64,000 bases of DNA from Escherichia coli (GCF_041886205.1 NZ_CP169029.1); one strand, 5' to 3'; positions 37,228 to 43,413 are shown, numbered from the stretch's first letter. A program made the numbers and translations. Notes: generated by a model from the letters alone, not told the origin.

Positions 37228-37467
37228 CCATTCAGGATGAGGCGGTAAGCTTCATCCTGATATTCTTGCTTCAGTTGCGGTCCAGTTAATCATTCTAAAT
37301 AACAACTGCTGAAATTATACGAATTGCGGTATGTATTTTAATTTATAACGATAATATTATTTTTATTTTCTGCAATGAACGTCACAAATAATTGTCGCTT
37401 AAGTTAAATTTATTTTAAATGATAATAAATATCAGTTCACTTATAATTTCTTGCTTTGTAATTTTAA

Positions 37468-37481
37468 TTGATAACGATCAA
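37468..37481. promoter_or_regulatory. Perfect FNR-box palindrome upstream of ydhY
   Basis: TTGATAACGATCAA matches the TTGAT-N4-ATCAA consensus; the ydhYVWXUT operon is reported to be FNR-activated. Confidence 0.65.
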
Positions 37482-37682
37482 TGTTAAGGGTTCAGAATAA
37501 TTACATTATTTTTTCTCCTAACCATAAAGGATTAGTTTATCGGCGTTAAATCTTTTCTCATACACTATCGGGTTAGGGAAAATATCTGGTGTTGGGGACA
37601 GAGTCAGCAGCGTATTAGTTGAATGCTTAATATCAGGCTGCTGAATTGTCAGCACTGTGTTTGCGAAGAGGATGCGAAATAA

Positions 37683-38309
37683 ATGAACCCGGTTGATCGT
37701 CCACTATTAGATATTGGCTTAACGCGATTAGAATTCTTGCGTATATCAGGAAAAGGCCTTGCTGGTCTAACAATTGCCCCTGCGTTACTGTCACTTTTGG
37801 GTTGCAAACAGGAAGATATTGATAGCGGCACAGTAGGGTTGATAAATACACCCAAAGGGGTGCTGGTGACCCAGCGAGCGCGATGCACGGGTTGCCACCG
37901 CTGTGAAATCTCTTGTACCAACTTCAACGATGGCTCAGTAGGGACATTCTTCTCCCGTATCAAAATCCATCGCAATTATTTCTTTGGCGACAACGGGGTT
38001 GGCTCTGGCGGCGGCCTGTATGGCGATCTCAACTATACCGCGGACACCTGCCGTCAATGCAAAGAGCCGCAATGCATGAACGTCTGCCCGATTGGTGCGA
38101 TTACCTGGCAGCAGAAAGAAGGCTGTATTACCGTCGATCATAAACGTTGTATTGGCTGTAGCGCCTGTACTACGGCATGCCCGTGGATGATGGCCACCGT
38201 AAATACCGAAAGTAAAAAATCCTCGAAATGTGTGTTATGCGGTGAATGCGCAAACGCCTGCCCAACAGGGGCGTTAAAAATTATCGAGTGGAAAGATATT
38301 ACTGTGTGA
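37683..38309 (+). CDS. ydhY: 4Fe-4S ferredoxin-like protein YdhY
   Basis: 208-aa ORF with several CxxCxxCxxxCP motifs and a Tat-like N-terminus. Confidence 0.88.
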   Translation: MNPVDRPLLDIGLTRLEFLRISGKGLAGLTIAPALLSLLGCKQEDIDSGTVGLINTPKGVLVTQRARCTGCHRCEISCTNFNDGSVGTFFSRIKIHRNYFFGDNGVGSGGGLYGDLNYTADTCRQCKEPQCMNVCPIGAITWQQKEGCITVDHKRCIGCSACTTACPWMMATVNTESKKSSKCVLCGECANACPTGALKIIEWKDITV

Positions 38310-38329
38310 ATCTTGCAAAGGAAAAAATC

Positions 38330-41083: not shown

Positions 41084-41146
41084 AATTTCAGGGAGATGTC
41101 ATGGATAGGGTGGACAGTTGCAGCCACTGCATTAGGGGATAATCAG

Positions 41147-41815
41147 ATGTCCTTCACTCGACGCAAATTTGTTCTGGGGATGGGAACAGTAATCTTTTTT
41201 ACTGGTTCTGCGTCTTCTCTGTTAGCGAACACGAGGCAAGAAAAGGAAGTTCGGTATGCCATGATTCATGACGAGTCACGGTGCAATGGCTGTAATATTT
41301 GCGCCCGCGCATGCCGTAAAACTAACCACGTCCCCGCTCAGGGAAGCCGTTTATCGATAGCACACATTCCAGTCACCGATAACGACAACGAAACGCAGTA
41401 TCACTTTTTTCGCCAGTCATGTCAGCACTGCGAAGATGCTCCGTGCATCGACGTTTGCCCGACGGGGGCATCGTGGCGTGATGAGCAGGGGATCGTGCGG
41501 GTAGAAAAATCGCAGTGCATCGGCTGCAGTTATTGCATTGGCGCTTGTCCGTACCAGGTTCGCTACCTTAACCCTGTCACTAAAGTGGCAGATAAATGTG
41601 ATTTCTGCGCTGAGTCCCGGCTGGCAAAAGGCTTTCCGCCCATTTGCGTCAGCGCTTGTCCGGAACACGCATTGATCTTTGGTCGCGAAGATAGCCCAGA
41701 AATTCAGGCGTGGTTGCAGGAAAATAAATACTATCAATATCAGCTACCTGGTGCCGGGAAACCGCATCTGTATCGCCGGTTCGGTCAACATTTGATTAAA
41801 AAGGAAAATGTATGA
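41147..41815 (+). CDS. ydhX: 4Fe-4S ferredoxin-like protein YdhX (Tat signal)
   Basis: Start taken at MSFTRRKFVLGMGTVIFFTGSASSLLA (twin-arginine motif); ORF track begins 17 codons earlier at 41096. Confidence 0.82.
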   Translation: MSFTRRKFVLGMGTVIFFTGSASSLLANTRQEKEVRYAMIHDESRCNGCNICARACRKTNHVPAQGSRLSIAHIPVTDNDNETQYHFFRQSCQHCEDAPCIDVCPTGASWRDEQGIVRVEKSQCIGCSYCIGACPYQVRYLNPVTKVADKCDFCAESRLAKGFPPICVSACPEHALIFGREDSPEIQAWLQENKYYQYQLPGAGKPHLYRRFGQHLIKKENV

Positions 41816-42597
41816 ACCCGTCGCAACATGCTGAACAGTTTCAGAGCCAGTTAGCGAACTATGTGCCACAGTTCACTCCCGAATTTTGGCCGGTGTGGTT
41901 GATCATTGCCGGAGTATTGCTGGTTGGGATGTGGTTGGTGCTGGGGCTGCACGCCTTGCTTCGTGCTCGTGGCGTGAAGAAATCAGCCACCGATCATGGT
42001 GAGAAGATTTATCTTTACAGCAAAGCGGTCAGATTATGGCACTGGTCGAATGCGTTACTCTTTGTATTGTTGCTGGCAAGTGGGCTGATAAATCACTTTG
42101 CGCTGGTGGGCGCAACTGCGGTCAAAAGTCTGGTTGCGTTGCATGAAGTTTGCGGATTTTTGTTACTCGCATGCTGGCTCGGCTTTGTGCTGATCAATGC
42201 TGTTGGGGGTAATGGTCACCACTATCGCATTCGTCGTCAGGGGTGGCTGGAACGAGCGGCAAAACAAACGCGATTTTATTTGTTTGGCATTATGCAGGGG
42301 GAAGAACATCCTTTCCCGGCAACAACCCAGTCTAAATTTAATCCCTTACAGCAGGTCGCCTATGTTGGTGTCATGTATGGATTGCTGCCGTTGTTACTAT
42401 TGACGGGGCTGCTGTGTCTCTATCCGCAAGCCGTGGGAGATGTGTTTCCTGGCGTAAGATACTGGTTATTGCAGGCGCATTTTGCTCTGGCATTTATAAG
42501 CCTCTTTTTTATCTTCGGTCATCTTTATCTTTGCACCACGGGGCGTACGCCACACGAAACCTTTAAAAGCATGGTCGATGGCTATCACCGGCACTAA
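41812..42597 (+). CDS. ydhU: PhsC-like membrane cytochrome b subunit YdhU
   Basis: 261-aa polytopic membrane ORF overlapping ydhX stop. Confidence 0.85.
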   Translation: MNPSQHAEQFQSQLANYVPQFTPEFWPVWLIIAGVLLVGMWLVLGLHALLRARGVKKSATDHGEKIYLYSKAVRLWHWSNALLFVLLLASGLINHFALVGATAVKSLVALHEVCGFLLLACWLGFVLINAVGGNGHHYRIRRQGWLERAAKQTRFYLFGIMQGEEHPFPATTQSKFNPLQQVAYVGVMYGLLPLLLLTGLLCLYPQAVGDVFPGVRYWLLQAHFALAFISLFFIFGHLYLCTTGRTPHETFKSMVDGYHRH

Positions 42598-42600
42598 CGA

Positions 42601-43413
42601 ATGATCATTACACGAGCAGACCTGCGAGAATGGCGTATCGGAGCGGTGATGTATCGCTGGTTCCTGCGCCATTTCCCACGCGGCGGTAGTTATGCCGATA
42701 TTCATCATGCACTGATTGAGGAAGGATATACGGACTGGGCGGAGAGTCTGGTTGAGTATGCGTGGAAAAAATGGCTGGCGGATGAAAACTTCGCGCATCA
42801 GGAAGTTTCCTCTATGCAAAAACTGGCCACAGACCCCGGAGAGATACCATTTTGCAGTCAGTTTGCCCGCAGCGACGATCATGCTCGCATCGGCTGTTGT
42901 GAGGATAACGCCCGAATCGCAACCGCTGGGTATGCCGCGCAAATTGCCAGTATGGGTTATAGCGTGCGGATTGGAAGTGTCGGCTTTAACAGTCACATTG
43001 GCAGCTCCGGTGAACGCGCACGGGTTGCTGTAACCGGTAATTCTTCGCGGATAAGCAGCGCTGGAGATAGTAGTCGGATTGCGAACACCGGAATGCGAGT
43101 ACGCGTTTGTACATTGGGTGAACGGTGTCATGTCGCCAGTAATGGTGACCTGGCGCAAATCGCCAGCTTTGGCGCAAACGCCAGAATTGCCAACAGCGGC
43201 GACAATGTACACATCATTGCCAGCGGTGAAAATTCAACGGTTGTGAGCACGGGCGTGGTCGACTCAATTATTCTCGGGCCAGGGGGAAGCGCCGCACTGG
43301 CATATCATGACGGCGAAAGAGTTCGCTTCGCCGTCGCCATTGAAGGTGAAAACAATATTCGAGCCGGAGTCCGCTATCGTCTTAATGAACAGCATCAGTT
43401 TGTTGAGTGCTGA
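42601..43413 (+). CDS. ydhT: Uncharacterised protein YdhT, with about 15 tandem 9-residue repeats
   Basis: 270-aa ORF; residues ~95-229 form repeats of the form x-[RQH]-[IV]-x-x-x-G-x-x (ARIATAGYA / AQIASMGYS / VRIGSVGFN / SHIGSSGER ...). Confidence 0.85.
   Translation: MIITRADLREWRIGAVMYRWFLRHFPRGGSYADIHHALIEEGYTDWAESLVEYAWKKWLADENFAHQEVSSMQKLATDPGEIPFCSQFARSDDHARIGCCEDNARIATAGYAAQIASMGYSVRIGSVGFNSHIGSSGERARVAVTGNSSRISSAGDSSRIANTGMRVRVCTLGERCHVASNGDLAQIASFGANARIANSGDNVHIIASGENSTVVSTGVVDSIILGPGGSAALAYHDGERVRFAVAIEGENNIRAGVRYRLNEQHQFVEC

Follow-up and report, generated by a model that had tools for sequence, protein, structure and literature searches.

An intact ydhYVWXUT oxidoreductase operon with a consensus FNR site in a 64-kb segment of an Escherichia coli chromosome

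The ydhYVWXUT oxidoreductase operon was analysed in a 64,000-nucleotide stretch of Escherichia coli DNA (GCF_041886205.1, NZ_CP169029.1), and this whole stretch is referred to below as the window. With high confidence, the locus was identified as the ordinary chromosomal copy of the operon, intact and functionally equivalent to that of strain K-12, a reading that extends to its regulation and to the layout of the encoded enzyme. It is an already known core-genome operon with published regulation, and its identity was established on the basis of synteny, gene lengths, near-identity to K-12, and equivalog scores. The remaining value lies in the system (its substrate and its topology) and not in the present copy. 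As the sole E. coli enzyme with bis-Mo-MPT, YdhV represents a membrane-bound pterin class that is widespread in gut bacteria and has no known reaction.

Integrity of the operon and comparison with K-12

The segment from 37458 to 43413 carries six uninterrupted reading frames on the + strand in the order ydhY, ydhV, ydhW, ydhX, ydhU, and ydhT. The window, a piece of the E. coli chromosome, is oriented opposite to K-12 and runs from thrS/pheST to suf, lpp, and pykF and then to gloA, and the operon is flanked as in K-12 by fumD (ydhZ, 37018-37227) upstream and by the convergent ydhS (43425-45029). Compared with the K-12 MG1655 locus (b1674-b1669), which has the same genes, order, lengths, flanks, and FNR site, all six genes were found to have the K-12 length, an ATG start codon, and no internal stop, and the nucleotide identity across them was 98.7-100%. 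The initial annotation had described the six-gene cluster as complete, and neither a frameshift nor a premature stop was detected. It had also described the genes as tightly packed with several 4-bp overlaps. The packing is indeed tight, with gaps of 20 nt between ydhY and ydhV, 3 nt between ydhV and ydhW (or 12 nt with a ydhW start at Met4, 40445), 63 nt between ydhW and ydhX, and 3 nt between ydhU and ydhT, but only one 4-bp overlap is present, that of ydhX with ydhU.

Five of the encoded proteins scored above the cut-offs of their NCBIfam equivalog models (PRK09898, 436.7 bits against 213, for YdhY; PRK09849, 1376 bits against 868, for YdhV; PRK15006, 458.8 bits against 204, for YdhU; PRK09947, 393 against 203, and PRK09946, 490.4 against 300). 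YdhX has no equivalog model of its own, and 221 of its 222 residues are identical to those of K-12 YdhX.

The differences from the K-12 operon are neutral-looking polymorphisms. A comparison for lineage-specific substitutions, which had been proposed as a check, revealed nine amino-acid changes in 1,676 residues (none in YdhY or YdhW, one each in YdhV and YdhX, four in YdhU, and three in YdhT). All nine were located in variable alignment columns or brought the window allele nearer to the family consensus than that of K-12. The single change in YdhV, L616Q, is in a variable column, and Q616 of YdhV and G133 of YdhU both fit the wider family consensus better than the K-12 residues. Lineage-specific damaging substitutions were ruled out on these grounds. 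When the 6.2-kb cluster was used as a query, matches were obtained in 5424 of 5426 complete E. coli genomes, with 80% or more of the query length covered in 5393 genomes, and the sequence was 100% identical to that of strains 6EVA and wlxctx60. The earlier description of the system as known but under-characterised was borne out, since the locus matches the K-12 operon and the literature provides FNR regulation but no substrate, no paper having established its function.

Control region of ydhY

The sequence TTGATAACGATCAA at 37468-37481 (no strand assigned) agrees with all ten specified bases of the FNR consensus TTGAT-N4-ATCAA, is identical in K-12, and is the sole exact match in the window, with 201 nt between the site and the ydhY ATG. 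In shuffled sequences the exact consensus occurred on average 0.15 times, with at least one match in 14 of 100 shuffles, and when one mismatch was allowed the window contained 3 matches against 2.67 expected. The sequence match alone is only mildly improbable window-wide and is suggestive, not decisive; the weight of the site derives from its place in the 455-bp spacer between fumD and ydhY and from the presence of the identical site in K-12. Symmetry is perfect between the two 5-bp half-sites and lacking in the spacer AACG, so the 14-mer is a perfect consensus and not the perfect palindrome reported at first, although the consensus and the distance of about 200 bp to ydhY were reported correctly.

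In K-12, ydhYVWXUT has one FNR site, located at -42.5, with a chromatin immunoprecipitation (ChIP) peak and FNR-dependent activation (Myers 2013, PMC3688515), and the FNR regulation proposed for the operon is supported by this work. Under anaerobiosis, FNR bound to TTGATAACGATCAA at -42.5 would activate a class II promoter, as shown by others in K-12. If the transcription start is set by the position of the site centre at -42.5 (PMC3688515), the 5' untranslated leader would be about 166 nt long (37517-37682, + strand). This leader had no Rfam match at E <= 1 and its folding was no better than that of shuffled sequences (z = -1.29), and a regulatory RNA within it was rejected for both reasons. 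The 455-bp spacer differs from that of K-12 by six substitutions and one 1-nt indel, and two of the substitutions lie between the FNR site and the presumed start. C-to-T changes relative to K-12 are present at 37492 and 37503, one of them in the presumed -10 region (K-12 TCACATTAT, window TTACATTAT).

The sigma-S holoenzyme prefers the ydhY promoter in vitro, and expression was found to be rpoS-dependent in one medium (PMC3141248). A simple sigma-70 scan identified no -10/-35 pair at the position of the presumed FNR-linked promoter, as expected for an activator-dependent promoter. The sigma-70-like element ATGATA-17-TATAAT at 37419-37447, upstream of the FNR site, was not significant (3 matches against 2.0 expected in the AT-rich spacer) and was discarded.

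The operon is reportedly also regulated by NarL and NarP, according to the title of a 2008 study by Partridge as cited elsewhere, and in the presence of nitrate or nitrite these regulators would repress the K-12 ydhY promoter, as far as that title indicates. Because no exact NarL heptamer TACYYMT was found in the control region (window-wide, 33 were found against 31.4 expected by chance), the published NarL/NarP sites, judged from sequence, must be degenerate. No consensus FNR site was found upstream of ydhY in four distant clusters (L007, L011, L012, and L013); FNR control may be lineage-specific, or other regulators may act in those taxa.

The upstream edge of the control region is formed by a terminator-like hairpin at 37232-37260 (+ strand), just 3' of fumD, with a 12-bp stem containing six G-C pairs and a T-rich tail. 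The fumD gene, formerly ydhZ (Pfam DUF2767) and now annotated as fumarase D, is identical to that of K-12.

Enzyme layout, topology and accessory proteins

The gene ydhV (38330-40432, + strand) encodes a 700-aa pterin subunit of the AOR/WOR family, belonging to the YdhV clade (AFOR_N, 1.1e-67; AFOR_C, 3.1e-48). A CxxCxxxC motif at residues 307-314 aligns with the [4Fe-4S] ligands Cys288/291/295 of P. furiosus AOR, and Cys336 lies in an N-T-C motif shared by nine homologues. In a 2025 review (PMC12096430), the YdhV clade was described as having Cys336 as an extra metal ligand, as being without the second-shell residues of aldehyde-oxidising AORs, and as being closest to BamB; the local YdhV-AOR alignments stop short of the second-shell region, and the absence of these residues rests on that review. 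YdhV is not an aldehyde:ferredoxin oxidoreductase in the strict sense, given the Cys336 ligand and the missing second-shell residues. The family named in the initial annotation was confirmed by AFOR_N and AFOR_C, with "aldehyde" standing as a family label and not as a function, and no aldehyde activity of YdhV has been reported in the literature (PMC9103625). As far as the work of Reschke (2019) is summarised in PMC9103625 and PMC13328260, YdhV binds bis-Mo-MPT.

Several relatives were compared with YdhV. BamB, of class II benzoyl-CoA reductase, shares the metal Cys ligand and is likewise without the AOR second-shell residues (PMC12096430), and a sequence match of YdhV to the BamB structure 4z3w_A was obtained at E = 1.5e-44. 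BamB is a cytoplasmic W enzyme in the BamBCDEFGHI complex, whereas YdhV prefers Mo and is placed in a proposed Tat- and quinol-linked membrane complex, and the likeness implies no aromatic substrate for YdhV. In a classification of June 2026, YdhV and YdhY were assigned as WorL and WorS to the Class V (clade 41) WORs, which are membrane-associated, predicted to face the periplasm, and without an assigned activity (PMC13328260). Compared with Class V at large, the E. coli type is extended by YdhX, YdhU, and YdhT, and its preferred metal is Mo.

Electron transfer would be carried out by YdhY, YdhX, and YdhU. Both ferredoxin-like proteins of the initial annotation were recovered by domain search as [4Fe-4S] multicluster proteins. 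YdhY (37683-38309, + strand) is the 208-aa WorS subunit and is identical to the K-12 protein; in an alignment of 34 full-length homologues (A1), which also underlies the leader analysis below, it has 16 invariant Cys in four CxxCxxCxxxC-type groups, enough for four [4Fe-4S] clusters. YdhX (41147-41815, + strand) is a 222-aa NrfC/PhsB-like four-cluster ferredoxin (Pfam Fer4_11) whose best NCBIfam similarity is NrfC, at 249.7 bits, below the 377.6 cut-off. The mechanically called ydhX frame starts at 41096, and the Shine-Dalgarno sequence AGGGGA together with the K-12 and PGAP annotations favours 41147. The leader of YdhX reads MSFTRRKFVLGMG...SLLA and includes the canonical Tat signal noted previously, MSFTRRKFVLGMGTVIFFTGSASSLLA, which fits S/T-R-R-x-F-L-K followed by a hydrophobic stretch; the consecutive arginines (RR) are present in five of five orthologues, and YdhX is among the predicted Tat substrates (PMC7549933). 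The YdhU gene (41812-42597, + strand), whose start and the ydhX stop have 4 bp in common, encodes a 261-aa membrane cytochrome b (Ni_hydr_CYTB, 5.8e-31; PRK15006), in agreement with its earlier description as PhsC-like. The similarity applies to the PhsC sequence model and not to the partnership, as neither phsA nor phsB is present in the cluster. The RefSeq/PGAP name of ydhU, "phsC, thiosulfate reductase cytochrome B subunit", is a misleading family-derived label. YdhX thus resembles the Tat-exported four-cluster ferredoxins NrfC and PhsB and YdhU resembles PhsC, with the same logic of a relay from quinol to periplasmic Fe-S proteins as in PhsABC and NrfABCD, but the ydh cluster is without a PhsA or NrfA catalytic subunit, and the partner is an AOR-family enzyme instead of a bis-MGD or haem enzyme.

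The leader of YdhY has the family consensus L-T-R-R-E-F-L-K-x-S-G-K-G-L-A-G-L...L-L-x-L-x-G-C, in which a lipobox-like L-x-G-C comes after a Tat motif; R15 and F18 do not vary, and G40 and C41 show conservation of 90% or more. The E. coli protein has a degenerate Tat motif, T-R-L-E-F-L-R, without consecutive arginines; R-R occurs in distant members (identity of 57% or less), whose motif reads T/S-R-R-x-F-L/M-K, and its place is taken by R-L, R-Q, or R-K in E. coli and its relatives. A putative lipobox, L-L-G-C41, lies at the end of the hydrophobic region, as judged from the sequence pattern. Gene neighbourhoods were compared at 10 loci (the window and L005-L013). YdhY is non-RR at all five loci that have YdhX (always RR) and YdhU, namely the window, L007, L011, L012, and L013, and it is RR at all five without YdhX and YdhU (L005, L006, L008, L009, and L010). 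Four of the latter (L005, L006, L008, and L010) are Firmicute-type loci, which differ from the E. coli type in having only the ydhY-ydhV-ydhW trio, accompanied by tatA and/or tatC and by the cofactor-maturation genes fdhD, xdhC, moeA, or mobB-type genes, with RR kept on YdhY. YdhV has a signal peptide at none of the 10 loci. Locus L005 also has genes for HGD-D (2-hydroxyacyl-CoA-dehydratase-like) and a BcrAD_BadFG activase on both sides, a possible hint at a substrate pathway there.

The two remaining proteins, YdhW and YdhT, were described from the outset as being without an assigned function; they match only their own NCBIfam equivalogs, and a sequence search of solved structures produced no match for either at E <= 1. 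YdhW (40436-41083, + strand; 215 aa), the third partner of YdhY and YdhV, probably starts at Met4 (40445) with a length of 212 aa, because TAAGGA is located 9 nt upstream, the starts of homologues agree, and the PGAP annotation of strain 6EVA uses this start; the K-12-annotated ATG at 40436 directly abuts the Shine-Dalgarno TAAGGA. A structural model based on a 15-sequence alignment (mean pLDDT 85.8, core >90) predicts tandem winged-helix domains. YdhW is encoded at nine of the 10 loci, and the tenth contig ends after ydhV; this universal co-occurrence suggests that YdhW may serve YdhY/YdhV specifically, either in assembly or maturation or as a subunit. YdhT (42601-43413, + strand; 270 aa) is predicted to consist of an N-terminal helical domain, a beta-solenoid of S-S-G-x-x-A-x-I-G 9-residue repeats, and a C-terminal cap (mean pLDDT 93.6).

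In the proposed mechanism, YdhV would act as a bis-Mo-MPT catalytic subunit with the extra Cys336 ligand and one [4Fe-4S] cluster, docked on YdhY as the carrier of four [4Fe-4S] clusters, and YdhY would be wired through the Tat-exported YdhX to the cytochrome b YdhU and then to the menaquinone pool. A periplasmic complex has been predicted previously (PMC13328260, PMC4257093). A periplasmic position is most likely for the entire catalytic head, which would be anchored by YdhU, because of the RR signal of YdhX, the Tat/lipobox leader of YdhY, the tat genes beside ydhY-ydhV-ydhW at four loci, and the published predictions. YdhY and YdhV are most likely exported together with, or in dependence on, YdhX, since E. 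coli YdhY has lost the second Tat arginine and YdhX keeps RR, and YdhY is possibly lipid-anchored at Cys41, since the lipobox has been retained. The more specific scheme, according to which proteobacterial YdhY and YdhV without an RR of their own ride on YdhX, YdhY is a lipid-anchored Tat-dependent lipoprotein, and YdhW is a maturation factor of a new kind, is put forward only tentatively and is improbable in its entirety.

A different topology would result if YdhY and YdhV of E. coli were cytoplasmic, the R-L leader being a vestigial Tat signal used for chaperone binding or docking as in NarG, with only YdhX exported and YdhU carrying electrons across the membrane. The loss of the second arginine in YdhY of E. 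coli and its relatives, the lack of a signal peptide on every YdhV, and the cytoplasmic YdhV variants predicted in some gut Actinobacteria (PMC4257093) are consistent with such an arrangement. However, every non-RR YdhY keeps the lipobox-like G40-C41, a conservation not easily accounted for unless the protein is exported and processed, and neither the first Arg nor the Phe of the motif varies. For an iron-sulfur relay between them, YdhX and YdhY must also lie on one side of the membrane, and according to published predictions the E. coli complex is periplasmic (PMC13328260, PMC4257093); a cytoplasmic head was accordingly considered unlikely. With the periplasmic head retained, electrons could still run in the opposite direction, with YdhV oxidising an aldehyde or another low-potential donor and menaquinone receiving the electrons by way of YdhY, YdhX, and YdhU. 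Most characterised AOR/WOR-family enzymes oxidise aldehydes, and the subunits through which hydrogenase and formate dehydrogenase reduce quinone belong, like YdhU, to the Ni_hydr_CYTB family. This dehydrogenase is nevertheless doubtful: the YdhV clade is without the AOR second-shell residues and has its Cys ligand in common with the reductive BamB (PMC12096430; Cys336 confirmed here), no aldehyde activity is on record (PMC9103625), and the FNR-on/nitrate-off pattern would resemble that of lower-ranking terminal reductases. Because of this pattern and the BamB-like non-aldehyde active site, a quinol-driven reductase of an acceptor is favoured over an aldehyde dehydrogenase, a direction of electron flow that we purely infer.

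The place of YdhT in the complex is less secure. Relatives of YdhT occur in phage genomes, among them a full-length one with 38% identity among phage genes beside terminase (L015), and ydhT might be a passenger, derived from a phage or mobile element, that only shares the operon transcript at its 3' end and forms no part of the oxidoreductase, a view to which we give somewhat less than an even chance. It agrees with the absence of ydhT from the YdhX/YdhU-containing clusters L007, L011, and L012 and from all Firmicute-type clusters, with the other N-terminal domains in many of the 632 representative clusters of the YdhT family, with weak PHROG matches, and with a generic beta-solenoid fold of the kind present in tailspikes and adhesins. 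Among other chromosomal neighbours (L013/L014), a complete ydhYVWXUT cluster still ends with a ydhT of only 40% identity, which argues for a maintained association; the short gap after ydhU also speaks against a passenger. Apart from this possible independence of ydhT from the enzyme and the inferred direction of electron flow, several further points weigh against the layout preferred here, in which a periplasmic YdhV/YdhY head is linked through YdhX to YdhU. The correlation between loss of RR and the presence of YdhX and YdhU was obtained at 10 loci and is phylogenetically confounded, the non-RR copies forming one clade (at least 59% identity), and the head could alternatively be cytoplasmic or merely tethered to the membrane. 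Tat motifs of the R-L type are not known to support export. The possibility that YdhW is a TorD/DmsD-type chaperone was rejected, the predicted fold not being that of the all-helical TorD. Purified YdhV was inactive (PMC9103625), and mutation of ydhX did not lower fitness in a mouse model (PMC7549933). As anticipated in the initial annotation, no substrate or physiological role of YdhV was assigned in the literature from 2022 to June 2026 (PMC9103625, PMC12096430, PMC13328260). On the basis of 10 loci and predicted structures, the ydhY-ydhV-ydhW trio, the loss of RR in the presence of YdhX and YdhU, the lipobox, and the folds of YdhW and YdhT offer handles on the topology and on an active holo-complex.

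Insertion elements and other features of the window

About 2 kb past the end of the operon, a 1310-bp element of the IS3 family (45374-46683) splits ydhR after approximately codon 30, leaving remnants at 45155-45373 and 46684-46773 (- strand). The element is IS629-like, with terminal repeats TGAACCGCCCCGGG, reading frames orfA and orfB of 108 aa and 296 aa, and a frameshift pseudoknot of the ALIL type at 46232-46348. It is flanked by a 3-bp AAT target duplication, and the insertion is absent there in K-12 and in the otherwise identical strain 6EVA.

A 768-bp IS1 (15738-16505) joins the first approximately 58 nt of ydiV to the first approximately 64 nt of ydiF. At this junction, 16,311 bp are missing relative to 6EVA (ydiF', ydiO, ydiP, ydiQRST, fadK, ppsA, ppsR, aroH, hemP, selO, and 'ydiV). 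Among 5,426 complete E. coli genomes, not one covers both junctions of the IS1 (best coverage, 86%), and IS1 also occurs in ydiV of some strains that do not carry the 16,311-bp deletion.

A match to the Rfam model "HPnc0260 antisense RNA" at 46757-46919 (+ strand) scored above the gathering score and overlaps the tandem tRNA-Val genes at 46884-47038 (- strand); it is probably a tRNA-derived artefact of the model and not a separate RNA. The other small RNA matches in the window, all of them expected, were RprA, rydB, STnc550, STnc540, and the Phe leader.

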